From Escherichia phage P694: DNA of 40,477 nt. Location: the sequence record NC_028863.1; one strand, written 5' to 3'. The notes beneath the pieces were generated by a model that worked only from the letters and a program-made list of their open reading frames with translations, was not told where the DNA came from and did not search any database. Shown piece by piece: positions 1 through 18,036 of this stretch. The number at the start of each line of letters is the position of its first letter. Position 1 is the stretch's first letter. Made by a program: the position numbers and the translations under genes.

Positions 1-172
1 CCCTGAGTGGTATCCCCACAATGGTAGCTATCAAGAACTTACTGTAGGCTCCGGTCACGTATGTACTGGTATCGTTCTGAACACTGGTGGCGTGTGCTCT
101 GGTATGCAACACCGGGGTATGTGGATTGGGTATCACAACGGCGCGCAACGTCAGGTTGCCTCTATTGGATAA
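1..172 (+). CDS. 17: Tail fibre protein, 3' end only (exact duplicate of 40249..40420)
   Basis: Bases 1..229 are identical to 40249..40477; the reading frame continues from the gene 17 ORF and stops at TAA 170..172. Confidence 0.85.
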   Translation, partial: PEWYPHNGSYQELTVGSGHVCTGIVLNTGGVCSGMQHRGMWIGYHNGAQRQVASIG

Positions 173-229
173 GGAGACATTATTATGAAGATTTACAAAG
201 GATGGAAGTACACTGTGGTTACTGATAAG
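1..229. repeat. Terminal overlap of the window with itself (1..229 = 40249..40477), indicating a circularised or concatemer-derived assembly
   Basis: Exact 229-bp identity between the window start and end, read directly. Confidence 0.9.
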
Positions 230-562
230 GATACCGGAATCTCCACTTACGACATCTTTAATGAAGACGGTATCGACTGGTATAAGATGATGGTCGAACT
301 GGACGACCGAGACCTTAAGTGGGTCATCGGGGTTAAAGATGGCTTCGTCAATTGGGCTACCACTAAGTCGGTCAACGGGATGAACTCCCCAGCCGATGGT
401 GGCATATTGATTCTAACAGATGACTTCCCGTTCCCTGAGAACACTTTCGGTGTTCGATTTGATGGTGAGAAGTTTTATAAAGAAGAACCAGTGGTTCGAA
501 CCAAAGCAGACATCGAGGCAGACCTTCTAAGGCTCATGGCTGAGTTGAAATCCATAAGCTAA
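185..562 (+). CDS. Hypothetical 125-aa protein between tail fibre and holin; no T7 counterpart I recognise; candidate tail-fibre-associated or host-range accessory protein
   Basis: ATG at 185 preceded by AAGGAGA 171..177; clean ORF in a tightly packed operon; position immediately after gene 17. Confidence 0.6.
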   Translation: MKIYKGWKYTVVTDKDTGISTYDIFNEDGIDWYKMMVELDDRDLKWVIGVKDGFVNWATTKSVNGMNSPADGGILILTDDFPFPENTFGVRFDGEKFYKEEPVVRTKADIEADLLRLMAELKSIS

Positions 563-574
563 TAGGAGGTTATT

Positions 575-781
575 ATGTTGTCTTTAGACTTCAACAATGA
601 AGTTGTTAAGGCGGCTCCGATTGTAGGGACAGGGGTAGCCGATGGTGCTGCCCGACTGTTCTTCGGACTGTCACTTAACGAGTGGTTCTATGTAGCCGCA
701 ATTGCCTACACAGTGGCTCAAATTGGTGCCAAGGTAGTCGATGTGATTATCAAATGGAAGAAGGAGGGTAAAGATGTCTAA
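575..781 (+). CDS. 17.5: Holin (T7 gp17.5-like, class II)
   Basis: 68 aa starting MLSLDFNNE..., near-identical to my recollection of T7 gp17.5; RBS AGGAGG upstream. Confidence 0.9.
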   Translation: MLSLDFNNEVVKAAPIVGTGVADGAARLFFGLSLNEWFYVAAIAYTVAQIGAKVVDVIIKWKKEGKDV

Positions 782-1043
782 CGATAAGTCCTTAATTCAA
801 TTCCTTGAGATGCTGGACACTGAGATGGCTCAACGTATGCTGAAAGACCTTCAGGATGACGATAAGCGCACACCTCAACTGTACAACGCTATCGGGAAAC
901 TATTAGAGCGCCACAAGTTCCAAGTCTCCAAGTTACAGCCAGACCGTAACATCCTTGGTGGACTGGCAGATGGACTCGAAGAGTACCAGAACCTAGTGGG
1001 TGCTGATGGTCTCACTGAAGATGAGAAGTACACACTGAATTGA
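774..1043 (+). CDS. 18: Terminase small subunit (DNA maturation protein A)
   Basis: 89 aa, same length and high similarity to T7 gp18 as recalled; start overlaps the holin stop. Confidence 0.9.
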   Translation: MSNDKSLIQFLEMLDTEMAQRMLKDLQDDDKRTPQLYNAIGKLLERHKFQVSKLQPDRNILGGLADGLEEYQNLVGADGLTEDEKYTLN

Positions 1044-1046
1044 TAG

Positions 1047-1095
1047 AATAACTCAAGGCCACTACATCTAGTGGTCTTTATGATATTTTATCACA
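1047..1095 (+). promoter_or_regulatory. RNase III processing-site-like hairpin (R18.5-like)
   Basis: Motif aactcaagg-hairpin-ctttatgat shared with the other intergenic hairpins at 5081, 5619, 6216, 7985, 11695 and 18561. Confidence 0.5.
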
Positions 1096-1141
1096 ACTCA
1101 CGGCGACTGTGCGTGAAATCTGGAAATATGGGAGGGTAGTT

Positions 1142-1588
1142 ATGCTCAAGAATTTAAAGAGATACGCCATAATCGCTGCGTTTGCCTTGGGAATTACCCT
1201 TGCGTACAACCACGGCTATGACAAGGCTAACACTAAATGGGAACAGGAGGTGCACAATGAGTACGTTAAGAAAGTTGAGGCGACTGCGGATAAACAGGCT
1301 GCTCTCAATGAAGTCTCACGACAATACCAAGAAGACCTTGCGGCGCTGGAAGGCAGCACTGATAGGGTCATTAATGATTTGCGTAACGATGGTAAGCGGC
1401 TGCGCGTCAAACTATCAGCCACCTCACGAGAACTCCAAGCTAACGGTGGATGCCTCGTTGATGGTCGAGCCGAACTTGACGAAGAGTTTAGTAAGCGTCT
1501 TATCGGAGTAACTCAAAGAGGGGATGCGTGGATTCGTGCGCTCCAAGATACAATCAAAGAAATGCAAACTAAGAAGGAGGCTAAGTAA
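1142..1588 (+). CDS. 18.5: Rz-like i-spanin (T7 gp18.5-like)
   Basis: Internal ATG 1142 with GGGAGG RBS; N-terminal membrane anchor; similarity to T7 gp18.5 ([12 protein letters not shown]... motif). Confidence 0.85.
1257..1511 (+). CDS. 18.7: Rz1-like o-spanin lipoprotein, embedded in the +1 frame of gene 18.5
   Basis: ATG 1257 with GGAGG RBS; lipobox-like ...[10 protein letters not shown]; C-terminal SLMVEPNLT as in T7 gp18.7. Confidence 0.8.
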   Translation: MSTLRKLRRLRINRLLSMKSHDNTKKTLRRWKAALIGSLMICVTMVSGCASNYQPPHENSKLTVDASLMVEPNLTKSLVSVLSE

Positions 1589-3348
1589 TGTCACAATCCC
1601 AAGAAGCTAAGAATGCGTTAATCATTGCGCAACTTAAGGGTGATTTTGTTGCTTTCTTATTCGTCTTATGGAAGGCTCTGAACTTACCTAAACCAACCAA
1701 GTGTCAGATTGATATGGCACGTACACTCGCTAATGGTGACCACAAGAAGTTTATCCTTCAGGCGTTCCGTGGTATCGGCAAGTCCTTTATCACCTGTGCG
1801 TTCGTTGTGTGGGTCTTATGGCGTGATCCTCAACTTAAGGTGCTCATCGTGTCTGCCTCTAAGGAACGTGCTGACGCTAACTCCATCTTCATCAAGAACA
1901 TCATTGACCTGCTGCCATTCCTCGCTGAGTTAAAACCTCGACCGGGACAGCGTGACTCTGTGATTAGCTTCGACGTTGGCTTGGCGAAACCCGACCACTC
2001 ACCCTCTGTGAAGTCTGTGGGTATCACTGGTCAGTTAACTGGTAGCCGTGCTGACATCATCATTGCAGATGACGTTGAGGTTCCCGGCAATAGCTCTACG
2101 AGTTCGGCCCGTGAGAAGCTCTGGACGTTGGTAACTGAGTTTGCTGCGTTACTTAAGCCACTGCCTACCTCTCGTGTTATCTACCTTGGCACACCTCAAA
2201 CCGAGATGACGCTCTACAAGGAACTTGAGGATAACAAAGGGTACAGCACTGTAATCTGGCCTGCACAGTATCCACGTAATGACGCTGAGGCTCTCTACTA
2301 TGGGGACCGCTTGGCTCCGATGCTTAAGGCTGAATACGATGAAGGCTTTGAGTTACTTCGTGGTCAACCTACTGACCCTATTCGATTCGATATGGATGAC
2401 CTCCGTGAACGTGAACTCGAATATGGCAAAGCTGGCTACACGCTTCAGTTCATGCTTAACCCGAACCTTAGTGATGCCGAGAAGTACCCGCTACGACTCC
2501 GTGACGCTATCGTGTGCGCTGTGGACCCTGAACGTGCCCCATTGTCTTACCAGTGGTTGCCGAACCGTCAGAACCGCAATGAGGAACTCCCTAACGTTGG
2601 TCTGAAGGGTGATGACATCCATGCGTTCCATACGTGCTCTTCTCGTACCGCTGAGTATCAGTCTAAGATTCTGGTCATTGACCCAAGTGGTCGTGGTAAG
2701 GATGAGACCGGGTATGCAGTCCTGTACTCACTTAACGGTTATATCTACTTGATGGAAGTCGGTGGGTTCCGTGGTGGTTACGATGATGCTACCCTAGAGA
2801 AGCTCGCTAAGAAGGCCAAGCAGTGGAAGGTACAGACAGTCGTCCACGAGTCCAACTTCGGTGATGGTATGTTCGGTAAGATTTTCTCTCCGATTCTCCT
2901 GAAGCACCACAAGTGTGCCTTAGAGGAAATCCGTGCTAAAGGCATGAAGGAGGTGCGAATCTGCGATACTATCGAACCATTGATGGGTGCGCACAAGCTG
3001 GTCATTCGTGATGAGGTTATCCGTGAGGACTACCAGACTGCTCGTGACCTTGATGGGAAACATGATGTTCGCTACAGTGCGTTCTATCAGATGACCCGTA
3101 TGACCCGTGAGCGAGGCGCTGTGGCACACGATGACCGACTTGATGCTATCGCATTGGGTATCGAGTTCCTGCGTGAAGGGATGCTTGTGGACAGCCGTGT
3201 AGGTGAAGAAGAGATGACCCTTGAGTTCCTTGAACACCACATGGAGAAACAGACCATTGGTGGTGATGCTATCCATAGCTACGATGTTGGTGGCGTGGAC
3301 ATCTACTACGAGGACGATGGAGACTCTAGCTGCTTCATTGAGTGGTAA
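1588..3348 (+). CDS. 19: Terminase large subunit (DNA maturation protein B)
   Basis: 586 aa, same length as T7 gp19 with high similarity as recalled; ATG overlaps the 18.5 stop. Confidence 0.95.
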
Positions 3349-3435
3349 TAGATAAGTATGCGGGAAAGGTGCATAGGTAAGCACTTAGTACCGCTACGTT
3401 ACCGTTAAGTAACTTACTGATATACATGAAGAAAT

Positions 3436-3458
3436 TAATACGACTCACTATTGGGAAG
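3436..3458 (+). promoter_or_regulatory. Phage RNAP promoter (phiOR-like)
   Basis: TAATACGACTCACTATTGGGAAGG, one mismatch to the T7 consensus at -1. Confidence 0.8.
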
Positions 3459-3615
3459 GGCACCCTAAGACAACTTAAAGACACTTAAAGACTGCATATG
3501 CAAAGTGCATACTTAGTGACTAACTCTAAGAGACCCTTACAGTGAGGGATGATAGTAATAGTAATTACATCCCCACTATCAGTGTAACCATCAAGTATAA
3601 CAAGGAGGACGCTCT

Positions 3616-3771
3616 ATGCGCTTACTAACCGTGCTCAAGACACTGGCAACGCATCGAGTGACCTATAAATTTCTCGTTGTACTTGCTGCTTCCATTGGTC
3701 TCGCATCTAGTGCTGAACACATCGGTGAACTGGAGACTCTGCTTTGTTCTCTACTCACTTGTGTTCCTTAG
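3616..3771 (+). CDS. 19.5: gp19.5-like small protein
   Basis: 51 aa MRLLTVLKTLATHRVTYKFLVVL..., similar to T7 gp19.5 as recalled; AAGGAGG RBS. Confidence 0.75.
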   Translation: MRLLTVLKTLATHRVTYKFLVVLAASIGLASSAEHIGELETLLCSLLTCVP

Positions 3772-3859
3772 ACTGCTCATCGGCGCTTAATGCGCTCTTA
3801 GTGATTATGGTCGATATACATCTTCCCTATAATCACTGTAAGAAGTCAACTCTAAGAGT

Positions 3860-4300
3860 AACCCTTATGTACCCTCTATGGTCTACAGGGTCTCTTAGGG
3901 TCTCACCTTATGATAGAGCCTCTGTGGTTAACCTTATGAGAGACTTGATGTACCCTTTAAGAATCCTACAGAAAAATCTGAGTGGGTATCTCATAGTTCA
4001 TACACACCGAGTTCCCCCTATGGCCTCCTTCAGTCCCACCCAAAGAGTGCCACCCCTTATGATAACTTATGGTTTACTTAATGTCAATCCTTATGTGAGA
4101 CATTGGGTTAACTCTAGGTGTTACCACTAGATGTGGTGCTTAGAGTGACCTTATGACCACTATATGTAGTCCTCTCTGTGTCCCTATCTGTAATCACCTT
4201 ATGTTTCCTCTTAGAGTTAACACCTTATGTCACCTCTTATTAGCTACGCTAACCTTAATGTTACTCCTTATGGCTGCCTCTCCTTATGTTAACCTTCAGT
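3860..4300. repeat. Array of short dispersed CCTTATG-type repeats in the genome-end region
   Basis: At least 10 copies of (A/C)CCTTATG at irregular spacing (e.g. 3865, 3907, 3932, 4046, 4091, 4151, 4198, 4224, 4268, 4284); analogous to the CCTAAAG repeats at the T7 ends. Confidence 0.7.
3990..4200. repeat. Predicted location of the collapsed direct terminal repeat; physical left end near 3990 (approximate)
   Basis: TCTCATAGTTCATACACACCGAGTTCCCCCTATGG resembles the T7 left terminus TCTCACAGTGTACGGACC...TTCCCCCATAGGG; CTCTCTGTGTCCCTATCTGT (about 4175..4195) matches a T7 terminal-repeat segment. Confidence 0.35.
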
Positions 4301-4366
4301 CGGTGCCTTCAGTCTATAGACACCTATCGTTACCACTCTTAGACCAGCCTTAAAGACCATACAGCT

Positions 4367-4391
4367 AATGCGACTCACTATTGAGAATGGT
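4367..4391 (+). promoter_or_regulatory. Phage RNAP promoter variant (phiOL-like)
   Basis: TAATGCGACTCACTATTGAGAATGG; degenerate relative to the consensus seen elsewhere in the window. Confidence 0.5.
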
Positions 4392-4482
4392 TGTTTATAG
4401 TCTTATTACTATTCCCTTCCTTATAGGCTAACTTAAAGAGACTTAAAGAGACTCTGAGACTACTTAAAGTTTCAACTAGGGG

Positions 4483-4511
4483 TTGACTCTAAGAAACAGC
4501 TGTGAGACTAT
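4483..4511 (+). promoter_or_regulatory. Candidate host sigma70 early promoter (A1-like)
   Basis: TTGACT, 17-bp spacer, GACTAT; position upstream of the early genes as in T7. Confidence 0.45.
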
Positions 4512-4617
4512 AGCAACCGTTGAGAGACACAACGCTACCAACTACCAGACAAGACCGCGAGTTATCTGGTAATGCTGAAGAGTCTCAAGTAGTCATCAAC
4601 CAGACATAAGAAAGTGG

Positions 4618-4646
4618 TTGACTCAACGAAAGAAATAACGTAGTAT
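4618..4646 (+). promoter_or_regulatory. Candidate host sigma70 early promoter (A2-like)
   Basis: TTGACT, 17-bp spacer, TAGTAT. Confidence 0.55.
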
Positions 4647-4712
4647 AGCAGTCGTCAACAACTGGTCGCCCTATGAAACAACATGAGGTGTCACGGTGAC
4701 AAACAAAAGTAG

Positions 4713-4742
4713 TTGACAGGCAGTAAAGTTAAGATGTAAGAT
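4713..4742 (+). promoter_or_regulatory. Candidate host sigma70 early promoter (A3-like)
   Basis: TTGACA, 18-bp spacer, TAAGAT. Confidence 0.55.
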
Positions 4743-4860
4743 GTACGACATGCAGTAAGGGTGTAGGGATAGGAACCGAGAAACCTGCCCGTGACCCGCC
4801 AAGGATAAGGCACTAGCCGTGAGTCGAATTCGGTCACTCATCGCATAAAAGAATAACAGG

Positions 4861-4889
4861 TTGACAGTCTCCTTTAAAAACTGTAAGCT
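4861..4889 (+). promoter_or_regulatory. Candidate additional host sigma70 promoter
   Basis: TTGACA, 17-bp spacer, TAAGCT. Confidence 0.4.
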
Positions 4890-5080
4890 GTACCACATGC
4901 ACTACATAACGTTCTTGTGAGGTCACACACTGAAAGTGACTCGGTGCTAACAAACCTGCACTTAAAGTTCTTTAACAATTTGGTCGTGTAATTCCCTTAC
5001 TGCGGGACAGGTAGTCAAGAACTACGGGGATGACGTGAACGCACAAGCGTTTAACCAGTGATGACGCCGACTGATAGCGA

Positions 5081-5136
5081 TTAACTCAAGGGCGCACATT
5101 AAGTAACAACGTGTGCTCTTTATGATAATCACTAAC
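5081..5136 (+). promoter_or_regulatory. RNase III-like hairpin upstream of the SAM hydrolase gene
   Basis: aactcaagg + hairpin + ctttatgata motif. Confidence 0.5.
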
Positions 5137-5156
5137 ACACATAATGAGGCACTATC

Positions 5157-5615
5157 ATGATTTACACTAACGAACCTGCAAACGTATTCTATGTACTGGT
5201 ATCAGCGTTCCGCTCCAACCTCTGCGATGAAGTCAATATGAGCCGTCATCGTCACATGGTTAACTCACTGCGTAATGCACCACTTGAATACGGTAGCGTT
5301 GAGTCTACAAATTTGACTGGTTGTTATCGAGAGGTTATCGCAAGTGCACCAACTGAGGAACTGACCGTTCGTGTACGCTGTGCTAACAAAGCTCAAGCAA
5401 TAGCGGTTGCACGTCTGGCGTGTAACGAGTTCGAGCAAGATTGTGTATTGGTCTATAAGTCACAGACGCACACGGCTGGCTTAGTGTACGCTCAAGGTAT
5501 TGCTGGCTATAAAGCTGAACGTCTGCCGGGTAGCTTCCAAGAAGTGCCTAAAGGCGCACCGCTTCAAGGTTGCTTCACGATTGATGAGTTCGGTCGCCGC
5601 TGGCAAGTACAGTAA
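5157..5615 (+). CDS. S-adenosylmethionine hydrolase/lyase (T3 gene 0.3-type anti-restriction)
   Basis: 152 aa; very similar to phage T3 SAMase as I recall it (MI.T.EPA.VFYVLVSAFRSNLCDEVNMSRHRHMV ... GCFTIDEFGRRWQVQ). Confidence 0.85.
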   Translation: MIYTNEPANVFYVLVSAFRSNLCDEVNMSRHRHMVNSLRNAPLEYGSVESTNLTGCYREVIASAPTEELTVRVRCANKAQAIAVARLACNEFEQDCVLVYKSQTHTAGLVYAQGIAGYKAERLPGSFQEVPKGAPLQGCFTIDEFGRRWQVQ

Positions 5616-5618
5616 GCG

Positions 5619-5668
5619 ATAAACTCAAGGTCGCTCCACGCGAGTGGCCTTTATGATTATCACTTTAA
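5619..5668 (+). promoter_or_regulatory. RNase III-like hairpin (R0.3-like), near-identical copy 1
   Basis: 49 bp differing at about 3 positions from the copy at 6216..6265. Confidence 0.55.
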
Positions 5669-5697
5669 CCTATACACACACTATGAGGTAACACAAG

Positions 5698-6060
5698 ATG
5701 GCTATGTCTAACATGACTTATAACAACGTTTTCGATCACGCTTACGAAATGCTGAAAGAAAATATCCGTTATGATGACATCCGTGACACTGATGACCTGC
5801 ACGATGCAGTGTACATGGCTGCTGAAATCGCCGTTCCGCACTATTACAGTGACGTTTTCAGCGTAATGGCTAGCGAAGGCATTGACCTTGAGTTCGAGGA
5901 CTCTGGTCTGATGCCGGACACCAAGGACGTAATCCGTATCCTGCAAGCGCGTATCTATGAGCAATTAACGATTGACCTTTGGGAAGACGCTGAGGACTTA
6001 CTGAACGAGTATCTTGAGGAAGTCGAAGAGTCTGAAGAGTACGAGGAGGATGAAGAGTAA
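5698..6060 (+). CDS. ocr: Ocr, DNA-mimic anti-restriction protein (T7 gene 0.3-type)
   Basis: 120 aa, strongly acidic, near-identical to T7 Ocr as recalled ([37 protein letters not shown]...). Confidence 0.95.
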
Positions 6061-6215
6061 TGGCTAACAACACCACGCAATACGGTCTGACCGCTCAAAC
6101 TGTACTGTTTTATAGTGACATGGTGCGCTGTGGCTTTGATTGGTCGCTCGCAATGGACCACCTTAAGGAACTGTACGAAAACAACAAGGCAATAGCCTTG
6201 GAGTCTGCTGAGTAA
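6060..6215 (+). CDS. 0.4: gp0.4-like (T7 FtsZ inhibitor homologue)
   Basis: 51 aa, ...QYGLTAQTVLFYSDMVRCGF.WSLAM..LKELYENNKAIALESAE matches T7 gp0.4 as recalled; ATG overlaps the ocr stop. Below the ORF-track length cutoff. Confidence 0.8.
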   Translation: MANNTTQYGLTAQTVLFYSDMVRCGFDWSLAMDHLKELYENNKAIALESAE

Positions 6216-6260
6216 TAAACCCAAGGTCGCTCCTAGCGAGTGGCCTTTATGATTATCACT
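6216..6260 (+). promoter_or_regulatory. RNase III-like hairpin (R0.5-like), near-identical copy 2
   Basis: Direct repeat of 5621..5669. Confidence 0.55.
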
Positions 6261-6284
6261 TTAACATGCAATAGGACTAACACC

Positions 6285-6485
6285 ATGAGTAAACTTCTGG
6301 CAACATCTAAAATCAAAGGCCAACACACTGTAACACTGCGAGAGTATGATCACGGGGCAATGGGTAGCACCTACGTTGTGCGATACGGTAAACAAGTCAC
6401 ACATTGGGTAAACGAGGTTTTGGCACAGGAGGAGTATCAAGCCTGTATGATACACCAAGCAACATGTGCAGGCTGGAATGACTGA
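6285..6485 (+). CDS. Hypothetical early protein (gene 0.5 position)
   Basis: 66 aa from ATG 6285 with AGGA-like RBS; the upstream in-frame ATG 6240 lies inside the hairpin. Confidence 0.5.
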   Translation: MSKLLATSKIKGQHTVTLREYDHGAMGSTYVVRYGKQVTHWVNEVLAQEEYQACMIHQATCAGWND

Positions 6486-6518
6486 TGACGCTATTTGCAC
6501 TCTATGAGGTAACACCAC

Positions 6519-6716
6519 ATGTTATATACATTTGTTGCACTCGTTTACACTCTAATCGCGCTGTACTTCCTTCGAGACTTCCGCAATGGTCTCAAGGTAC
6601 ACAAGGCTAACTTCTCGCACCTGAAGTATGGCTTTCTACCACGATTCACAGCCCGTGAACGTAACGGGCGCTTTAAGGCTAACAAGGTAGGTATCTTCTA
6701 TGTTGCAACACACTGA
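6519..6716 (+). CDS. Hypothetical early protein with hydrophobic N-terminus (gene 0.6 position)
   Basis: 65 aa; GAGGT RBS; a +1-frame ORF 6700..6864 overlaps its 3' end. Confidence 0.5.
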   Translation: MLYTFVALVYTLIALYFLRDFRNGLKVHKANFSHLKYGFLPRFTARERNGRFKANKVGIFYVATH

Positions 6717-6864
6717 TAGTTTAACTAAGAAAGTTCTGTACACACTGGCATATGGTGCTACCAACAAGACTCTAATGCGATCATTGCACCTGAAGCGGCT
6801 ACCAGCCAGAAAGGTGGCAAAGGCACGTAAAGAAGCGCGTTTAATCCTCAATTCTCTCTCTTAA
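6700..6864 (+). CDS. Small basic ORF (54 aa) overlapping the end of the gene 0.6-like ORF; possible 0.6B-type extension or independent gene
   Basis: ATG 6700 (AAGGTAGG upstream) to TAA 6862..6864; basic tail KRLPARKVAKARKEARL. Confidence 0.3.
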   Translation: MLQHTDSLTKKVLYTLAYGATNKTLMRSLHLKRLPARKVAKARKEARLILNSLS

Positions 6865-6891
6865 AGTCTCAACTAAATAGGACACAATCTA

Positions 6892-7977
6892 ATGAACTAC
6901 ACCGACATTCAGGCACGTCTGGAAATCATCAAGTCTCTACCGCTTAGCGAACTGGACAAGCGCCAGCCTCTTTTGGTCGAACTGGCTGCTGACATCGTGA
7001 ACGGTGAAACGTGCGATGGTAACGCCACCGATGGCTCGAACGGCTTGGAGTATCAGGACTGGTGGCACACATTGGGTGCACTGATGTGTGATGCAGGTTT
7101 CCGCATGTTGGGTAATGGTCACTTTAGTGCGGCATACTCGCATGAACTGTTACCGGGTCGAGTCATCAAGGTTGGCTTTAAGAAAGAGGATTCAGGCGCT
7201 GCATACACTGCATTCTGTAGGATGCACCAAGGCCGAGCGGGTATCCCTAACGTCTATCACGTAGCACGTCATGCAGGTTGCTATACGGTCGTACTGGACC
7301 GCTTAAAAAGCTGTGACGACGATAATGATGACCATGGGGCATACGCTGACATCGCGCGTTGCTTTGTGGAGTCGGATTACTATGACTCAAGCGACTTTGC
7401 ACCGGGTGACTACGAGTTCATCGAGACATGCAAGATGATTCGTGAGTTCTTCAACGGTATTGCATCTTTCGACATGCACAGCGGGAACATTATGTTCGAC
7501 GATAACGATGTTCCGTACATCACTGACCCGGTGAGTTTCTCACATGACCGTGAACGTGAGGACGGTTTCCCTCTGGACCCGGAAGCACTGATTGCCGAGG
7601 TCGAGGCGATAGCTAACGAGCGCATCATTGAACGTTGTCGCAACCGCAAGGCCAAGCGTGACCCTAATGGAACCTTTCAGGTTAACCGCAAGGCCAACAT
7701 GAAACGCCGTAAGTGCAACCGTAAGTTACACGTCAAAGGCATGGCACAGTTTGTTAAAGGTCGCATCGAACGCAGGGCCATTGATAGAAACGAACGCCGT
7801 GCTGAGATGCTCATGGGGTCTGCATGGAATAACTTCTGGTTCCGCAATGGTCCCTCAGCGGCACGCAAGGTTGAACAAGTGAACGGCCTTAAGTGGCAAC
7901 TAGGGGACCGCCTCGCAATCCAAGCGGGTCTCCCTCTGAATATCGACAAGGTACTTGACGCTCAACTGATGGGCTGA
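6892..7977 (+). CDS. 0.7: Ser/Thr protein kinase, host shutoff (T7 gp0.7-like)
   Basis: 361 aa; conserved motifs GNGHFSAAYSH, VIKVGFKKEDSGAAYTAFCRM, FDMHSGNIMF as in T7 gp0.7. Confidence 0.9.
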   Translation: MNYTDIQARLEIIKSLPLSELDKRQPLLVELAADIVNGETCDGNATDGSNGLEYQDWWHTLGALMCDAGFRMLGNGHFSAAYSHELLPGRVIKVGFKKEDSGAAYTAFCRMHQGRAGIPNVYHVARHAGCYTVVLDRLKSCDDDNDDHGAYADIARCFVESDYYDSSDFAPGDYEFIETCKMIREFFNGIASFDMHSGNIMFDDNDVPYITDPVSFSHDREREDGFPLDPEALIAEVEAIANERIIERCRNRKAKRDPNGTFQVNRKANMKRRKCNRKLHVKGMAQFVKGRIERRAIDRNERRAEMLMGSAWNNFWFRNGPSAARKVEQVNGLKWQLGDRLAIQAGLPLNIDKVLDAQLMG

Positions 7978-7984
7978 TAAGGTG

Positions 7985-8028
7985 TATCTTCAAGGTCGGC
8001 ACTGACTGCTGGCCTTTATAGATAAACT
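7985..8028 (+). promoter_or_regulatory. RNase III-like hairpin (R1-like)
   Basis: caaggtcggc...ggcctttatagat motif between the kinase and RNAP genes. Confidence 0.5.
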
Positions 8029-8050
8029 TTCTTAACAACGTGAGGCAACA

Positions 8051-10702
8051 ATGACTAACGTAATCAACGCACCAAAGAACGACTTCTCTGACATCGCTAA
8101 CGCAATCATGCCATACAACATTCTGGCTGACCATTACGGTGCACAGCTTGCAGCTACACAGCTTGAGTTAGAACATGAAGCGCACACTGAAGGCGAGAAG
8201 CGTTTCCTTAAGGCAATGGAACGTCAAATCAAAGCGGGTGAGTTCGGTGATAACGCAGTGGCTAAACCGCTCCTGTCATCTCTCGCACCAAAGTTTATCG
8301 AGGCGTGGAACACTTGGTTCACCGAGGTGGAAGCGAAGCGTGGCAAGCGTCCAGTGGCCTACAATCTGGTACAGAAGGTTGCACCTGAAGCGGCTGCTTT
8401 CATCACACTGAAGGTCACGCTGGCTTGCTTGACGAAAGAAGAGTTTACCAACCTGCAATCGGTCGCCACTAAGATTGGTCGTAGCATTGAAGATGAGTTA
8501 CGTTTCGGACGCATTCGTGATGAAGAAGCGAAACACTTTAAGAATCACGTACAGGAGGCACTGAACAAGCGCGTTGGTATCGTCTACAAGAAAGCATTCA
8601 TGCAAGCCGTAGAAGGCAAGATGTTAGACGCTGGTCAACTGCAAACCAAGTGGACTACATGGACACCTGAAGAATCAATTCACGTTGGTGTGCGCATGTT
8701 GGAACTGCTCATCGGGTCTACTGGTCTCGTTGAGTTACACCGACCGTTTGCTGGTAACGTTGAGAAGGATGGCGAGTACATCCAGTTAACCGAACAATAC
8801 GTTGACCTGTTATCTAAACGTGCTGGTGCACTGGCTGCAATCGCTCCAATGTATCAACCTTGCGTGGTCCCTCCTAAGCCTTGGACGAGTCCGGTCGGTG
8901 GCGGCTATTGGGCTGCTGGTCGCAAGCCTCTCTCTCTGGTTCGAACTGGTTCCAAGAAGGGACTTGAGCGTTACAACGACGTGTACATGCCTGAAGTTTA
9001 CAAGGCGGTGAACATCGCACAGAATACTCCTTGGAAGATTAACAAGAAGGTTCTGGCAGTGGTCAATGAGATTGTGAACTGGAAGCATTGCCCGGTTGAC
9101 GATGTACCTGCTCTCGAACGTGGTGAACTGCCTGTCAAACCTGAAGACATCGACACGAACGAAGCGGCTCTGAAAGCGTGGAAGAAAGCGGCCTCCGCAA
9201 TCTATCGCAAAGAGAAGGCCCGTGTGTCTCGTCGCATGAGCATGGAGTTCATGTTAGGGCAAGCCAACAAGTTCGCACAGTTTAAAGCTATCTGGTTCCC
9301 GATGAACATGGACTGGCGCGGTCGTGTGTATGCTGTACCGATGTTCAACCCGCAAGGCAACGACATGACCAAGGGTCTGTTAACGCTCGCTAAAGGTAAA
9401 CCAATCGGTGTCGATGGGTACTACTGGCTGAAGATTCACGGTGCTAACACTGCTGGCGTGGACAAGGTGGACTTTGCAGAACGCATCAAGTTCATTGAGG
9501 ACAACCACGAGAACATCATGAGCGTTGCGGCTGACCCGATTGCTAACACTTGGTGGGCTGAACAAGACTCTCCGTTCTGCTTCCTCGCGTTCTGCTTCGA
9601 GTATGCTGGCGTTCAACACCACGGTATGAACTACAACTGCTCTCTGCCGCTGGCGTTCGATGGCTCTTGCTCTGGTATTCAGCACTTCTCTGCAATGCTT
9701 CGTGATGAAGTAGGTGGACGCGCTGTTAACCTGATGCCAAGCAAGGAAGTACAAGACATCTACCGCATCGTTGCCGAACGTGTGAACGAAATCCTGAATC
9801 AAGATGTTATCAACGGGACCGACAACGAAGTAGAGACAGTGACCAACAAGGACACAGGCGAAATCACTGAGAAGCTGAAGTTAGGCACGAAGGAACTGGC
9901 TGGTCAATGGCTGGCATACGGTGTAACTCGCAAGGAAACTAAGCGTTCGGTCATGACGTTGGCTTACGGTTCCAAAGAGTACGGCTTCCGTGACCAAGTT
10001 CTTGAGGACACCATTCAGCCAGCTATCGACGATGGCAATGGATTGATGTTCACTCAACCGAACCAAGCTGCTAGCTATATGGCTAAACTGATTTGGAACG
10101 CTGTAACGGTGACTGTGGTCGCAGCGGTTGAAGCGATGAACTGGTTGAAGTCTGCTGCTAAACTTCTGGCTGCTGAAGTCAAGGACAAGAAGACTAAAGA
10201 GGTTCTCCGCAAGCGCTGCGCGGTACATTGGGTAACACCTGATGGCTTCCCTGTGTGGCAGGAGTATCGCAAGGCAGTACAGACTCGTTTGAACCTGATG
10301 TTCTTGGGTCAGATTCGTTTGCAGCCTACTGTGAACACCAACAAGGATAGCGGAATTGACGCACGTAAGCAGGAGTCAGGCATCGCACCTAACTTTGTTC
10401 ACTCAATGGACGGCAGCCACCTGAGAATGACTGTAGTGCGCTCCAATGAGGTCTACGGTGTGGAATCCTTCGCACTGATTCATGACTCCTTTGGTACTAT
10501 CCCTGCTGATGCTGGCAACCTGTTTAAAGCAGTGCGTGAAACGATGGTCAACACTTACGAAGAGAACGATGTACTTGCAGACTTCTATGAACAGTTTGCG
10601 GACCAGTTGCACGAGTCACAGCTTGACAAGATGCCTGAGATGCCAGCTAAAGGCGCTCTCGACCTCCAAGAAATCCTGAAGTCAGACTTTGCGTTTGCCT
10701 AA
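8051..10702 (+). CDS. 1: Single-subunit DNA-directed RNA polymerase
   Basis: 883 aa, same length as T7 RNAP, near-identical over long stretches including the C-terminal ...FAFA. Confidence 0.98.
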   Translation: MTNVINAPKNDFSDIANAIMPYNILADHYGAQLAATQLELEHEAHTEGEKRFLKAMERQIKAGEFGDNAVAKPLLSSLAPKFIEAWNTWFTEVEAKRGKRPVAYNLVQKVAPEAAAFITLKVTLACLTKEEFTNLQSVATKIGRSIEDELRFGRIRDEEAKHFKNHVQEALNKRVGIVYKKAFMQAVEGKMLDAGQLQTKWTTWTPEESIHVGVRMLELLIGSTGLVELHRPFAGNVEKDGEYIQLTEQYVDLLSKRAGALAAIAPMYQPCVVPPKPWTSPVGGGYWAAGRKPLSLVRTGSKKGLERYNDVYMPEVYKAVNIAQNTPWKINKKVLAVVNEIVNWKHCPVDDVPALERGELPVKPEDIDTNEAALKAWKKAASAIYRKEKARVSRRMSMEFMLGQANKFAQFKAIWFPMNMDWRGRVYAVPMFNPQGNDMTKGLLTLAKGKPIGVDGYYWLKIHGANTAGVDKVDFAERIKFIEDNHENIMSVAADPIANTWWAEQDSPFCFLAFCFEYAGVQHHGMNYNCSLPLAFDGSCSGIQHFSAMLRDEVGGRAVNLMPSKEVQDIYRIVAERVNEILNQDVINGTDNEVETVTNKDTGEITEKLKLGTKELAGQWLAYGVTRKETKRSVMTLAYGSKEYGFRDQVLEDTIQPAIDDGNGLMFTQPNQAASYMAKLIWNAVTVTVVAAVEAMNWLKSAAKLLAAEVKDKKTKEVLRKRCAVHWVTPDGFPVWQEYRKAVQTRLNLMFLGQIRLQPTVNTNKDSGIDARKQESGIAPNFVHSMDGSHLRMTVVRSNEVYGVESFALIHDSFGTIPADAGNLFKAVRETMVNTYEENDVLADFYEQFADQLHESQLDKMPEMPAKGALDLQEILKSDFAFA

Positions 10703-10709
10703 CGGAATC

Positions 10710-10731
10710 TAATACGACTCACTATTGGGAG
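10710..10731 (+). promoter_or_regulatory. Phage RNAP promoter (phi1.1A-like); candidate primary replication origin region
   Basis: TAATACGACTCACTATTGGGAG followed by a GCCTTCGGGC hairpin and an AT-rich leader. Confidence 0.8.
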
Positions 10732-10792
10732 CCTTCGGGCTTCCTACACTTTAAGATAACTTTAAGTTCTAACTCTAAGAGGAAACAACATT

Positions 10793-10924
10793 ATGCGTAA
10801 CTTCGAAAAGATGACCAAAAGTTCCAACCGTAACGCTCATGACTTCGAGGCAACTAAGGGTCGCAAGTTTAATAAACCATTACGCACCCGTGCGCATAAA
10901 CGCTGCTGGAAGGAGGCACTCTAA
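10793..10924 (+). CDS. 1.1: gp1.1-like small basic protein, copy A (T7-like allele)
   Basis: 43 aa MRNFEKMTKSSNRNAHDFEATKGRK..., close to T7 gp1.1 as recalled; GAGGAAA RBS. Confidence 0.75.
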   Translation: MRNFEKMTKSSNRNAHDFEATKGRKFNKPLRTRAHKRCWKEAL

Positions 10925-11196
10925 TGGGACGCTTATACAGTGGTAACTTAATAGCATACAAAGACGCTATCGAACGACTTAAAGAAGACCATGATGCAAA
11001 TGTGGTCGTTGAGACTTATCGCTATGAGGACTTCGCACAGCGACGGATGGTCGCCGGAGAGACACTTCGAGTGGTCTTACGGAATGGCTTAATGCTGACC
11101 GCTAAGTGTTTCGAACAGGATGATGCAGACGTTCGCTGTAATGCACAGACTGAATGGCTCCGCAAGGTTCACAGTGATATGAAGCACTGGAAGTAA
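10924..11196 (+). CDS. 1.2: gp1.2-like protein, copy A (divergent allele); dGTPase-inhibitor family
   Basis: 90 aa; shares the N-terminal MGRLYSGNL.A.K and C-terminal ...KHWK with copy B but is divergent in the middle. Confidence 0.7.
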   Translation: MGRLYSGNLIAYKDAIERLKEDHDANVVVETYRYEDFAQRRMVAGETLRVVLRNGLMLTAKCFEQDDADVRCNAQTEWLRKVHSDMKHWK

Positions 11197-11216
11197 TACG
11201 ACTCACTATTGGGGAG
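11194..11216 (+). promoter_or_regulatory. Phage RNAP promoter (phi1.1B-like)
   Basis: TAATACGACTCACTATTGGGGAG followed by a leader near-identical to 10732..10792. Confidence 0.8.
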
Positions 11217-11266
11217 CCTATGGGCTTCCTACACTTTAAGTTCTAACTCTAAGAGGAAACAACATT

Positions 11267-11416
11267 ATGCGTACCAACTTTGAACCAACCACTAAGCGCA
11301 ACAACGTAATCAATGAACATGGTGCTGAATGGCAGGAACGTAAAGACCGCATGAAGAAACGTCACAAGACACAACGTGGCAACTCTGAGAAACGCAACTG
11401 GAAGGAGACAATCTAA
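11267..11416 (+). CDS. gp1.1-like small basic protein, copy B (divergent allele)
   Basis: 49 aa MRTNFEPTTKRNNVINEHGAEWQERKDRMKKRHK...; same leader and RBS as copy A. Confidence 0.65.
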   Translation: MRTNFEPTTKRNNVINEHGAEWQERKDRMKKRHKTQRGNSEKRNWKETI

Positions 11417-11673
11417 TGGGTCGCTTATACGGTGGGAATCTTAGCGCATTCAAGGCCGCTGCTGGTCGAATCTTTAAGCTGGACTTAGTTGTCACATGTG
11501 ATGAATGGTATGAAGCACATATTCGTCTTGAGTGTATCAGGCTGCGCATAGAGGACCGGGATGGTCGCCTTATCGACTCTACTATTTGTAGTCATCATGA
11601 CGAAGACGTTCTCTATAGCACTTGTACCAATTGGCTGAACCGTATGTATGACCAGTTGAAAGACTGGAAGTAA
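11416..11673 (+). CDS. 1.2: gp1.2, inhibitor of host dGTP triphosphohydrolase, copy B (T7-like allele)
   Basis: 85 aa, same length as T7 gp1.2 and very similar as recalled (...CIRLRIEDRDGRLID...HHDEDVLY..CT.WLN.MYDQLKDWK). Confidence 0.85.
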   Translation: MGRLYGGNLSAFKAAAGRIFKLDLVVTCDEWYEAHIRLECIRLRIEDRDGRLIDSTICSHHDEDVLYSTCTNWLNRMYDQLKDWK

Positions 11674-11694
11674 TACGACTCACTATTGCGAGAG
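11671..11694 (+). promoter_or_regulatory. Phage RNAP promoter (phi1.3-like)
   Basis: TAATACGACTCACTATTGCGAGAGG. Confidence 0.7.
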
Positions 11695-11741
11695 GTAAAC
11701 TCAAGGTCATCCGAAAGGTTGGCCTTTGTGATTAACTTTTG
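11695..11741 (+). promoter_or_regulatory. RNase III-like hairpin (R1.3-like)
   Basis: gtaaactcaaggtcatccgaaaggttggcctttgtgattaac. Confidence 0.5.
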
Positions 11742-11781
11742 TTTAAACATTAACCAATAACACACATATAGGAGTTCCACC

Positions 11782-12834
11782 ATGGAAATCACATTTAAGA
11801 CTTCGCCACATAAAGCTGTATCATTCGTTGAGTCTGCCGTTAATAAAGCCCTCGACAAAGCTGGCTACCTGATTGCTGACATTAAATATGATGGCGTTCG
11901 TGGTAACATTGTAGTTGACAATACGGCTGACTCTGCGTGGCTCTCTCGTGTCTCCAAAGAGATTCCTGCTCTGTCACATCTCAACGGGTACGACAAGCGC
12001 TGGGAGATGCTCCTGAAGGATGACCGCTGTATCTTCCCTGATGGATTCATGCTTGATGGTGAACTGATGGTCAAAGGCGTGGACTTTAACACAGGGTCTG
12101 GCTTACTGAGGACCAAGTGGCTCAAGCAGAAGAACTTCATGTACACTGATTGTTCTGAGTGGGGCAAGGACTGTAATGGAAAACCTTTTGAGCTAGACGT
12201 TAAGCGACTCAAGGTTGTTCTCTACGGTGTCATGCCGTTTGACTCTATGGTCTCCGGTGAGACCTACGAAGTGATGAACCTATTAATGCGTGAGCACGTT
12301 AAGGCTATGCTTCCTGTTCTGCGTGAGCACTTCCCTGAAATCGAATGGGACATCTCTGAGAGCTATGAAGTCTACGATATGGTAGAACTGAATGCCCTCT
12401 ATGAGAAAGCCCGTGCCGATGGTCATGAAGGTCTGGTAGTCAAAGACCCTCTGGGCTTCTACATGCGTGGCAAGAAGTCTGGCTACTGGAAGATGAAGCC
12501 TGAGTGTGAAGCTGATGGTGTCATCGTGGGACTCAACTGGGGTACTCCGGGTCTGGCTAATGAAGGTAAAGTGATTGGCTTCGAGGTTCTCCTTGAGTCC
12601 GGTCGCGTAGTCTCCGCTAACAATATCAGCCAAGCGTTGATGGATGAGTTCACCAATAACGTTTTTGATGCTACAAACATCCTAAATGTAAGAACTGAGA
12701 GTGATTGGGTTAACCCTTATCAGGGCTGGCAGTGCCAAGTGGCCTACATGGAACAAACTCCTGACGGTTCTCTGCGTCACCCATCGTTCGCTATGTTCCG
12801 TGGTGTCGAGTCAGACCCAACGGTCAAGATGTAA
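11782..12834 (+). CDS. 1.3: ATP-dependent DNA ligase
   Basis: 350 aa; adenylation motif KYDGVRG near residue 35; overall T7 ligase similarity as recalled. Confidence 0.92.
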   Translation: MEITFKTSPHKAVSFVESAVNKALDKAGYLIADIKYDGVRGNIVVDNTADSAWLSRVSKEIPALSHLNGYDKRWEMLLKDDRCIFPDGFMLDGELMVKGVDFNTGSGLLRTKWLKQKNFMYTDCSEWGKDCNGKPFELDVKRLKVVLYGVMPFDSMVSGETYEVMNLLMREHVKAMLPVLREHFPEIEWDISESYEVYDMVELNALYEKARADGHEGLVVKDPLGFYMRGKKSGYWKMKPECEADGVIVGLNWGTPGLANEGKVIGFEVLLESGRVVSANNISQALMDEFTNNVFDATNILNVRTESDWVNPYQGWQCQVAYMEQTPDGSLRHPSFAMFRGVESDPTVKM

Positions 12835-12844
12835 ACCAACAAAC

Positions 12845-12876
12845 GGTCAGTCCTTAACGGGGCTGGCCTTTTCGCG
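12845..12876 (+). terminator. Candidate intrinsic terminator (early terminator TE-like)
   Basis: GGTCAGTCC / GGGGCTGGCC stem (two G-U pairs) with TTAAC loop, followed by TTTTCGCGTTTC. Confidence 0.45.
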
Positions 12877-12880
12877 TTTC

Positions 12881-12901
12881 TATTAGACTCACTATGGAGG
12901 A
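12881..12901 (+). promoter_or_regulatory. Degenerate phage-promoter-like sequence
   Basis: TATTAGACTCACTATGGAGGA; shortened relative to the consensus. Confidence 0.35.
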
Positions 12902-12909
12902 ACGACCTC

Positions 12910-12990
12910 ATGCTATTTCTAATTGTTGCTATCATTGTTGCCACGTTTGCCCTCGTTATCATTGACGACAACTGCTGGCCTGATTGCTAA
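12910..12990 (+). CDS. Small hydrophobic peptide (26 aa; gene 1.4 position)
   Basis: MLFLIVAIIVATFALVIIDDNCWPDC; GGAGGA RBS 9 nt upstream. Confidence 0.4.
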   Translation: MLFLIVAIIVATFALVIIDDNCWPDC

Positions 12991-13010
12991 TACGACTCAC
13001 ATATGGAGGA
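12988..13010 (+). promoter_or_regulatory. Phage-promoter-like sequence overlapping the RBS of the next gene
   Basis: TAATACGACTCACATATGGAGGA. Confidence 0.45.
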
Positions 13011-13017
13011 CACAACT

Positions 13018-13242
13018 ATGTTAAGACTTCACTTCAACAAATCTAATGGCATATTCTCTGCTCGTGGCTCTGACCGTTCTACGGTGCTGGCCTCTGAGAA
13101 ACATGCAGTCATCCCTAAAGTGCTTGGTTCGATCATTGAGTTAGCACCCCGTGTTCACGCTGTGATTACGACTGGCTTATATAAAGAAGCGACCACTGGC
13201 TCCCGGCCTTTCATCCCGGGTTCTCGTCACGCGTTTCCCTAA
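13018..13242 (+). CDS. Hypothetical protein (gene 1.5/1.6 position)
   Basis: 74 aa from ATG 13018 with GGAGGA RBS at spacing 7; the upstream ATG 13003 has no RBS. Confidence 0.55.
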   Translation: MLRLHFNKSNGIFSARGSDRSTVLASEKHAVIPKVLGSIIELAPRVHAVITTGLYKEATTGSRPFIPGSRHAFP

Positions 13243-13281
13243 AGTCCGTCTGGTCATTGCACGTATCAAGGAGGTGCTCTA

Positions 13282-13791
13282 ATGTCACGTAACACAGGAA
13301 GATGTGATAGCACCACGTACTGTGAAGCATGTAATGGTGACGACCGCTATCCGCATGTTGGTAAGCCAATAGTTAACAAACCACAAGATAAAGAGGGTGT
13401 TCTAATGGGACTGTTAGATGGTGCAGCTTGGGAAAAAGAAAACCCGCCAGTACGAGCAACTGGGTGTATAGCTTGCTTAGAGAATGATGACCGCTACCCA
13501 CACACTTGCCCACAACATGTTGGTAAGCCAATAGTTAACAAACCACAAGATATAGAGGGTGTTCGGACTCCGAGCCACTATATGTTGTTTGATGACATTG
13601 AGGCTATCGAAGTGATTGCCCGGTCGATGACCCGCGAACAGTTCAAAGGGTACTGCTTAGGGAACATCCTTAAGTACCGCCTCCGTGCTGGTAAGAAATC
13701 CGAACTGGCATTCTTAGAGAAGGACATGGCGAAAGCTGGGTTCTACGGTGAACTGTACGAGAAACATAAGGACAAGTGCTATGATTATTAA
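13282..13791 (+). CDS. 1.7: gp1.7-like nucleotide kinase with an N-terminal in-frame duplication
   Basis: 169 aa; residues 42 onward (MGLLDGAAWEKENPP...CIACLENDDRYPHTC...) match the T7 gp1.7 N-terminus as recalled, and the C-terminus (...KGYCLGNILKYRLRAGKKSELA...) matches too; alternative start ATG 13405 also has an RBS. Confidence 0.8.
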   Translation: MSRNTGRCDSTTYCEACNGDDRYPHVGKPIVNKPQDKEGVLMGLLDGAAWEKENPPVRATGCIACLENDDRYPHTCPQHVGKPIVNKPQDIEGVRTPSHYMLFDDIEAIEVIARSMTREQFKGYCLGNILKYRLRAGKKSELAFLEKDMAKAGFYGELYEKHKDKCYDY

Positions 13792-13954
13792 GGTCGAGTA
13801 TGTGGGTGAAGATGATATGATGGCACTAGTTAAACGCCATGACATATTCTTTGCAGAGCGAACATGGGACGGTAAGTTCTATAAGATCATGAACAAGCAT
13901 GACGAAGAAGTATATCTTTCACGTAACGAGGTGATTGAATATGACGATGCTTAA
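13781..13954 (+). CDS. Hypothetical small protein (gene 1.8 position)
   Basis: 57 aa from ATG 13781 (AAGGA upstream), overlapping the gene 1.7 stop. Confidence 0.5.
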   Translation: MIIKVEYVGEDDMMALVKRHDIFFAERTWDGKFYKIMNKHDEEVYLSRNEVIEYDDA

Positions 13955-14045
13955 ACCTAGCGAATGGTGTGAGCGTATGTTTGAAAAGACAGGCAACACC
14001 GACTATCTTGAATTATACAATCAGTGGAAGGAGAGAGGACAATGA
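13941..14045 (+). CDS. Hypothetical small ORF (34 aa) bridging the gene 1.8-like ORF and gene 2
   Basis: ATG 13941 with GAGGTGA RBS; its stop overlaps the gene 2 ATG (ATGA). Confidence 0.3.
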
Positions 14046-14233
14046 GCAATTTAAACAAAGGGTCACTGGTCAACGGTGACAAGAAGTTCTTCGCAACGGT
14101 AGAAGGCCAAGGCCAATCGTTCGAAGTCCCTGTGTTCGCTGTGTCTCTTGAAGAGGCCAACGAGTTAGCTGAATGGCAATATGTCCCGGCTGGCTTCGCA
14201 GTGACACGCATCCGTCCAGACCGAAAGGTTTAA
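14042..14233 (+). CDS. 2: Inhibitor of host RNA polymerase (T7 gp2-like)
   Basis: 63 aa [22 protein letters not shown]...[18 protein letters not shown], close to T7 gp2 as recalled; strong RBS. Confidence 0.88.
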
Positions 14234-14254
14234 TAGGACTCACTATTGGGGAGA
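14231..14254 (+). promoter_or_regulatory. Phage RNAP promoter (phi2.5-like)
   Basis: TAATAGGACTCACTATTGGGGAGA followed by a GGGGAGAC...GTTTCCC 5' hairpin. Confidence 0.75.
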
Positions 14255-14302
14255 CACAACGTTTCCCATTTTAACTTGCAGAAACTTCAAAGGAGAATCA
14301 TT

Positions 14303-15007
14303 ATGGCATTCGCAAAACGTAAAGTATTCACTTCCGCTCGTGGTGTTGCTGAACCTTACTGCTATCTGGCTAAACCAGACTTCGGTAGTGGTGACTTCAA
14401 GAACGAACGTGGTGTCTACAAAGTATCACTGACTGTATCCAACGATGACCCTCGCTGTCAGAAAATGATTGACGAGATTGTCGAAGCCCATGAGACGGAC
14501 TATGCTGCTCGACTTGAAGAGTACGAAGCGAACCCGCCGAAAGTTGTCAAGGGTAAGAAACCGCTGAAGCCATATGTTGGCGACATGCCTTTCATGGATA
14601 ACGAAGATGGAACCACTACGTTCAACTTCAAGTGCTATGGCTCGTTCACTGACAAGAAGACTGGTGAGAACAAACCAATCGACTTGGCTATCGTGGACTC
14701 CAAAGGTAAGCGCATCCGTGGTGAGCGCCCAGCTATCTCTGGCGGCTCTGAACTGAAGATTAAATACACTCTGTTCCCTTACGGCTGGTCTGCTGTGGCG
14801 GGTGCATCCGTTAAGCTGCAACTGGATTCCGTGATGCTGATTAAGCTGGTCGAGTTCGGTGGTGGTGATGACGATTGGGGTGATGAAATCGAAGAAGATG
14901 GCTACGAAGCTGATGAAAGCCAGACCCGTCAACGTCCCCAAAATGATTCTGGTTGGAACGAAGAACCGGAAGATGAAGGCGACGAAGATGAAGATGGCGA
15001 CTTCTAA
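14303..15007 (+). CDS. 2.5: Single-stranded DNA-binding protein with acidic C-terminal tail
   Basis: 234 aa from ATG 14303 (AAAGGAGA RBS); acidic C-terminus ...EDEGDEDEDGDF as in T7 gp2.5. Confidence 0.92.
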   Translation: MAFAKRKVFTSARGVAEPYCYLAKPDFGSGDFKNERGVYKVSLTVSNDDPRCQKMIDEIVEAHETDYAARLEEYEANPPKVVKGKKPLKPYVGDMPFMDNEDGTTTFNFKCYGSFTDKKTGENKPIDLAIVDSKGKRIRGERPAISGGSELKIKYTLFPYGWSAVAGASVKLQLDSVMLIKLVEFGGGDDDWGDEIEEDGYEADESQTRQRPQNDSGWNEEPEDEGDEDEDGDF

Positions 15008-15905: not shown

Positions 15906-15909
15906 TACT

Positions 15910-16002
15910 ATGATGATTATTCACGAGATGGGTCTGTACGATTTGGTTTATCGCTTGGCCTTCATGCTGGCAATGGTCTACATTCTGACCCGAAAGGATT
16001 AA
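15910..16002 (+). CDS. Small hydrophobic peptide (30 aa)
   Basis: MMIIHEMGLYDLVYRLAFMLAMVYILTRKD; sits where T7 carries gene 3.8. Confidence 0.35.
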   Translation: MMIIHEMGLYDLVYRLAFMLAMVYILTRKD

Positions 16003-16022
16003 TAGAACTCACTATGGGAGGA
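16000..16022 (+). promoter_or_regulatory. Degenerate phage-promoter-like sequence
   Basis: TAATAGAACTCACTATGGGAGGA. Confidence 0.4.
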
Positions 16023-16072
16023 CCGAAAGGTTTCTCCCTTTGTTCGCTAAAATTGTATAAGGAGTAACCACT

Positions 16073-18028
<1,956 letters not shown>

Positions 18029-18036
<8 letters not shown>

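Follow-up and report, generated by a model that had tools for sequence, protein, structure and literature searches.

The 229-bp end-to-end identity in the Escherichia phage P694 genome record: very probably an assembly overlap, with a terminal repeat predicted elsewhere

The duplicated contig ends and their gene content

The sequence record of Escherichia phage P694 (NC_028863.1) was analyzed as a single stretch of 40,477 nt, referred to here as the window, and carries the same 229 bp at its two ends. The genes and features at and around this duplication are listed below.

1..229 (+), left copy of the self-overlap, an exact match to 40249..40477, content from translations
2..172 (+), 3' end of gene 17, 56 codons and the stop, from translation (the last 172 nt of gene 17 are 1..172)
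173..184 (+), 12-nt spacer with a GGAG ribosome-binding site, between gene 17 and the post-fibre ORF
185..229 (+), first 15 codons (45 nt) of the post-fibre ORF, MKIYKGWKYTVVTDK, from translation
185..562 (+), post-fibre ORF, 125 aa, candidate tail-fibre assembly protein (weak match to phrog_136, E 2.9e-6)
575..781 (+), gene 17.5, holin (PHROG and Pfam matches)
774..1043 (+), gene 18, terminase small subunit (PHROG and Pfam matches)
1109..1588 (+), gene 18.5, Rz spanin (PHROG and Pfam matches)
1588..3348 (+), gene 19, terminase large subunit (PHROG and Pfam matches)
3616..3771 (+), homologue of gene 19.5 (51 aa), the final gene ahead of the right end (phrog_2193, E 5.9e-24)
38693..40420 (+), gene 17, tail fibre, 575 aa (PF03906, E 3.9e-56; PHROG tail fibre families)
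40249..40477 (+), right, redundant copy of the self-overlap, an exact match to 1..229

Direct comparison of the contig ends showed that 1..229 and 40249..40477 agree at all 229 bases, as a sequence-only reading of the window had stated. The pair was also listed by a repeat finder run over the whole window, which returned two copies, no third, and a start-to-start spacing of 40,248 bp, the unit length given in the same reading. A random match of 229 bp has a probability of about 4^-229, and a chance origin is impossible. The identity extends to both ends of the window, so that the contig boundaries, and not sequence divergence, determine its length.

The overlap, which starts with CCCTGAGTGG and ends with TACTGATAAG, is mostly coding. 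It is not the intergenic stretch between gene 19.5 and the early promoters, and lies instead in gene 17 and the next ORF, about 3.8 kb upstream of gene 19.5, with window position 1 (= 40249) falling on the third base of gene 17 codon 519. Neither the left-end motif TCTCA[C/T]AG nor the repeat-end motif CTCTGTGTC[C/T]CT (see later) was found within 1..229. A T7-type terminal repeat has identical sequence at both ends, and the 229-bp copies show this for the contig only.

Gene 17 and the post-fibre ORF are each intact once in the window as written. The earlier expectation that gene 17 would be split and the post-fibre ORF duplicated therefore held only for the duplicated edge fragments, which are the 3' piece of gene 17 (1..172) and the 5' piece of the post-fibre ORF (40433..40477); gene 17 itself is whole at 38693..40420, and a split arises only if the sequence is trimmed to 1..40248 without rotation. 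Left uncorrected, the record leads to a gene-17 fragment and a truncated post-fibre ORF being called at its edges, and to genome length and ends being misreported.

Residues 1-301 of gp17 are T7 gp17-like, and PDB 7boz matches these residues only; the C-terminal ~275 residues (39596..40420) gave no Pfam family or PDB match by sequence, and the exact gp17 protein had no match in the contig index. The post-fibre ORF had no Pfam match, and an exact 51-mer from it had none in viral_contigs. Its homologues were found in 63 phage records, a few of them annotated as tail fiber assembly protein, and in most of the listed ~39-kb T7-like records they sit at about 33-38 kb, in the gene-17 neighbourhood. 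The hosts of these ~39-kb T7-like phages are mostly Klebsiella, Escherichia, Erwinia, Pantoea and Serratia.

Relatives, gene order and the join between the contig ends

In a megablast search of 50,697 phage records, the best relatives were T7/T3-like phages belonging to the genus Berlinvirus, with nasanit, P483, D226, pO103, FE44 and BA14 as the closest records. Identity to the best relatives was 91-93%, and coverage was 82-85% over the first 25 kb and up to 100% over the last 15 kb. The window has this nucleotide identity over 82-100% of the query, an RNA polymerase of 883 aa and the T7 gene order, and the comparison supports its reading as a complete Berlinvirus (Studiervirinae, Autographiviridae) genome in an arbitrary circular permutation. 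The same comparison suggests a distinct Berlinvirus species; the product of identity and coverage for the best relatives is about 0.78-0.92 by segment, which is not a whole-genome intergenomic similarity, the measure to which the species threshold (>=95%) applies.

All T7 core genes from 0.3 to 19.5 were found, one copy each. The early and middle genes include the SAMase (0.3), an ocr-like gene, the kinase (0.7), RNA polymerase, ligase, endonuclease and amidase; genes 13-16 were assigned from ORF position and homology to annotated contigs; and the late order is tail fibre (17), holin (17.5), terminase small subunit (18), Rz (18.5), terminase large subunit (19) and 19.5. The terminase is of the T7 type (PF22530), gp19.5 is annotated at the homologous position in BA14, Kvp1 and FE44, and the repeat finder detected 14 copies of a phage-polymerase promoter (core TAATACGACTCACTATTGGGAG) across the window. 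The 40,248-bp unit is collinear with complete relatives of 38.4-40.8 kb, with no gene missing or duplicated. In the alignment with D226, 25001..40248 is covered at 100%, 3800..25000 is covered, and so is the join.

Several other repeats and gene differences were observed. A gene for a T3-type SAM hydrolase (5157..5615) precedes one for an ocr-like anti-restriction protein (5698..6060), and 51-nt direct repeats (5619..5669 and 6215..6265, 94% identical) bracket the ocr cassette. Both genes are present in P151, vB_ShiP-A7 and AV103, while pO103, P483 and D226 have the SAMase only, and gain or loss of the ocr cassette by recombination between the 51-nt repeats is consistent with these observations. 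A 49-nt direct repeat (13354..13402 and 13516..13564, 98% identical, 162 nt apart) lies inside an ORF at 13282..13791, the C-terminal half of which matches PHROG families with a nucleotide kinase annotation; the repeat encodes two copies of a motif, HVGKPIVNKPQD(K/I)EGV, with DDRYPH preceding each copy. A 41-nt exact direct repeat (10759..10799 and 11233..11273) comprises a leader, ribosome-binding site and ATG, and its copies sit downstream of two phage promoters (10698.. and 11182..) that are 484 nt apart, an arrangement that we take to resemble the duplicated phi1.1A/phi1.1B of T7. HNH homing-endonuclease ORFs (130-149 aa, PF13392) are found in close metagenome relatives between genes 19 and 19.5 (contigs L008, L009, L013 and L016) and between 18 and 18.5 (L012), and are absent from both positions in the window.

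The continuity of the sequence from 40248 to 1 was examined with a 2,300-nt query built across this join. A single match in the interior of the record of Escherichia phage vB_Eco_D226 (MN080711.1, 3263..5564) covers the query in one piece at 83.8% identity, and the D226 annotation over the match reads tail fibre, hypothetical protein, gp17.5 and packaging protein A. The exact 125-aa post-fibre protein is encoded on at least 23 contigs from public assemblies. In all ten of the metagenome contigs that were fetched, gene 17 lies directly upstream of the 125-aa ORF and the holin directly downstream; nine extend upstream to gene 16 and eight downstream to the terminase small subunit. The position of the post-fibre ORF directly after gene 17 is accordingly confirmed in D226 and in metagenome contigs with the identical protein.

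In these ten contigs, which come from different samples, the alignment runs through 40477 and on from 1, and there is a single 229-nt stretch, the same query bases being aligned to both window copies, which means that the sequence occurs once per genome and is flanked as a circle predicts. Biological contiguity of the join is thus supported by comparison with independent sequences. The exact identity in the window runs to both contig ends, the stretch occurs as a single copy with the same flanks in independent sequences, and it closes a collinear unit, as expected of a self-overlap. That contigs run across the join is not sufficient to distinguish an overlap artefact from a true repeat of the virion ends, because assemblies also pass through a genuine repeat (one metagenome contig, L008, passes through the terminal-repeat region described below with a single copy); the two are told apart by coding content, by the boundary motifs and by position in the genome.

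In most Berlinvirus relatives, the match is limited to about 27-29% of the junction query, a sign that the fibre tip and the post-fibre ORF may differ or be missing there. The tail fibre is a mosaic, and its tip and the post-fibre ORF together look like an exchanged module of receptor-binding tip and chaperone.

The predicted terminal repeat and physical ends

The region between gene 19 and the first early genes contains the following features.

3436..3458 (+), phage-RNAP promoter TAATACGACTCACTATTGGGAAG, phiOR counterpart (member of the 14-copy promoter family; BA14 phiOR is at the homologous place)
3863..4288 (+), cluster of CCTTATG heptamers, flanking and inside the predicted repeat (10 of the 18 sites in the window, all on the + strand)
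3989..4185 (+), predicted direct terminal repeat, 197 bp, boundaries +/-2 nt (alignments to BA14, Kvp1, FE44, vB_ShiP-A7 and T7)
4366..4388 (+), phage-RNAP promoter TAATGCGACTCACTATTGAGAAT, phiOL counterpart (member of the 14-copy promoter family)

The annotated terminal repeats of BA14 (194 bp), Kvp1 (194 bp) and FE44 (193 bp) were verified to be identical at both ends of their records; those of vB_ShiP-A7 and T7 are 177 bp and 160 bp. All five start with TCTCA[T/C]AG, aligned to window 3989, and end with CTCTGTGTC[C/T]CT, aligned to window 4174..4185. Each boundary motif occurs once in the window, at these positions. The left end aligns at 3989 with TCTCATAGTT (context GAGTGGGTA|TCTCATAGTTCATAC, the bar marking the boundary), and the repeat end at 4185 with CTCTGTGTCCCT (context CCTCTCTGTGTCCCT|ATCTGTAA). 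Several records of relatives start at the equivalent of window 3989 and finish at that of 4185. For two relatives the ends were determined experimentally: by primer walking on phage DNA for Kvp1 (39,472 bp, 194-bp direct terminal repeats; PMC2579914), and by run-off sequencing of restriction fragments for vB_ShiP-A7 (40,058 bp, 177-bp repeats; PMC8427288).

The sequence and boundaries of the relatives' terminal repeat are kept in the window at 92-95% identity, and 3989..4185 combines homology to phages with determined ends, matching boundaries and matching flanks. The sequence-only reading had placed the true ends within 3772..4366, and homology bears this out, the repeat mapping inside this interval, which is non-coding and spans exactly from the gene 19.5 stop to phiOL. 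The phiOL counterpart starts 378 nt from the predicted left end, compared with 353-375 for phiOL in BA14 and 405 in T7. CCTTATG occurs 18 times in the window against 3.7 expected, a count matched in 0 of 100 shuffles. Its cluster around the predicted repeat corresponds to the arrays of short repeats that surround the repeat of T7.

The 197-bp segment is present once in the window, as expected if two virion copies collapsed in the assembly. From these alignments we infer that the virion DNA of P694 has its left end at 3989 and carries 3989..4185 once more at its right end; its predicted length is 40,248 + 197 = 40,445 bp, and its first and last bases are predicted to be TCTCATAG and GTGTCCCT. 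In this predicted frame, window position 1 becomes coordinate 36,261. The placement of the physical ends for P694 is a prediction by homology only.

Within the predicted repeat, on the - strand at 4059..4087, is a leftward sigma-70-like site, TTGACA-17-TATCAT (11/12), of a kind for which the overall scan gave no enrichment against shuffles; in T7, the leftward host promoter A0 is at 224, just outside the repeat. Two mechanically called ORFs, 3744..4130 (128 aa) and 4153..4353 (66 aa), cross the region, and a similar ORF of 'unknown product' that reaches into the repeat is annotated in BA14 and FE44. The two calls in the window are probably spurious, in non-coding, repeat-rich DNA.

The ends of metagenome contigs were considered as markers of physical termini and rejected: L008 passes through the repeat, while L013 and L016 break off within it, at window ~4046 and ~4018, respectively. 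For the predicted left end, an exact 35-mer had no match in viral_contigs or metagenome_contigs, and neither this search nor those with the 51-mer and the gp17 protein found the source contig or an identical assembly. With a degenerate left-end pattern, the matches in viral_contigs were all to known isolates (A7, FE44, 285P, BSP161 and one more), and there was no match in metagenome_contigs.

Origin of the overlap and comparison with known phages

The contig represents a closed cycle that contains the terminal repeat once and was opened arbitrarily inside gene 17, and its 229-bp identity is very probably the assembly overlap of a circularized T7-like genome and not a viral repeat. This was also the interpretation offered by the first reading, and it gains support from the T7-like identity of the phage, the contiguous join and the presence of a terminal repeat homologue elsewhere. 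The proposed course of events begins with linear virion DNA that would carry a short, T7-like direct terminal repeat. Its two repeat copies, or concatemer junctions with one copy between units, would yield indistinguishable reads, and the assembly graph would for that reason close into a 40,248-bp cycle with one repeat copy; presumably, either virion-end copies or concatemer junctions were merged in this way. The assembler would then have broken this cycle at an arbitrary place, which fell within the 3' end of gene 17, and emitted it with a residual overlap, leaving the same 229 bases at both ends. The number 229 is odd, as required of a de Bruijn k; to our knowledge, none of the common assemblers uses it as a default k. 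Such circular-opening artefacts are routine in Berlinvirus, since related GenBank records begin at many permutation points (the equivalents of window 563, 575, 1145, 2275, 3989 and 4014), and D226 has a self-overlap of its own, of 115 bp.

The alternatives concern what the duplicated ends would represent. Were the 229 bp a genuine virion terminal repeat, packaging cleavage would have been relocated to the boundary between gene 17 and the post-fibre ORF, and 3989..4185 would be an internal relic; if true, P694 would be a Berlinvirus with a relocated cleavage site that has kept the ancestral repeat internally. The copies do stand at both ends of the sequence as given, and their length is inside the range of 148-428 bp reported for T7-like terminal repeats (PMC2579914). 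However, the 229 bp are mostly coding and carry neither conserved terminal motif, while a well-conserved homologue of the full repeat, with its motifs, phiOR and phiOL counterparts and heptamer array, lies 3.8 kb away at 3989..4185. The entering end of such a genome would, moreover, carry the holin and terminase genes in place of the early promoters and genes 0.3-1. Entry of the T7 type depends on those promoters and genes being at the entering end, and a genuine repeat at this position is considered extremely improbable. Phages with headful (pac-type) packaging, in which virion DNA is circularly permuted and terminally redundant without fixed ends, likewise assemble into circles with arbitrary overlaps, but this mode can be given very little credence for P694: its terminase is of the T7 type, the terminal repeat and boundaries of fixed-end relatives are kept, and fixed ends have been determined experimentally in close relatives (PMC2579914, PMC8427288).

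A false closure, in which the contig would be no single complete genome but a chimera between related strains that co-occur and have the 229 bp in common, has a possible source in metagenomes, where many variants of 93-99% similarity co-occur. Against it, D226 and ten independent contigs show the same join and gene order, and the unit is collinear with complete relatives, with nothing missing or duplicated, so this explanation is also very unlikely; a strain chimera would, in any case, still be a correctly closed genome map.

With the assembly-overlap explanation preferred, a correct map is obtained by trimming 40249..40477, rotating the sequence to start at 3989 and appending a second copy of 3989..4185, which gives the predicted virion length. 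Completeness tools flag end-to-end contig repeats as 'DTR'. Such a repeat on a viral contig proves closure of a circular assembly and is silent on the position and length of the physical repeat. The 229-bp feature is useful for annotation and without biological novelty, in what is otherwise an ordinary complete genome.

Among the relatives, vB_Eco_D226 is the closest across the join, with the same fibre C-terminus and a post-fibre ORF of 93.6% aa identity. Its record likewise represents a circular assembly, which overlaps itself exactly and has the terminal repeat only once, internally, but the overlap is 115 bp long and corresponds to window ~3800..3914, between 19.5 and the repeat, reflecting a different opening point. 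Because the start of the D226 record equals its end over 115 bp and the single repeat is internal, this deposited 'complete genome' is an untrimmed, arbitrarily opened circular assembly.

Kluyvera phage Kvp1 (Berlinvirus), which is absent from the records that the search with the post-fibre ORF matched, has a repeat homologous to window 3989..4185 with shared boundary motifs, and the order 19, 19.5, repeat, 0.3 SAMase is the same as in the window. Its record differs in beginning at the physical left end and including the repeat twice, whereas the window holds one copy and is opened in gene 17. In Shigella phage vB_ShiP-A7 (Berlinvirus), the left end (TCTCATAGTT) falls on window 3989 in the alignment and the right boundary (TCTCTGTGTCTCT(A)) on window 4185 (+/-2), and the SAMase and ocr-like gene pair is also present; however, the interior of its repeat is diverged and shorter, and the record was deposited as the reverse complement. 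The likeness extends to Escherichia phage T7 (39,937 bp), whose 160-bp repeat starts with TCTCACAG and has the identical 12-mer CTCTGTGTCCCT as its last bases, up to position 160; ATCTGT comes next in both T7 and the window, with phiOL and the host early promoters coming after the repeat. Conservation with T7 is limited to the repeat ends, and its short repeats are of the CCTAAAG type, whereas those of the window are CCTTATG.
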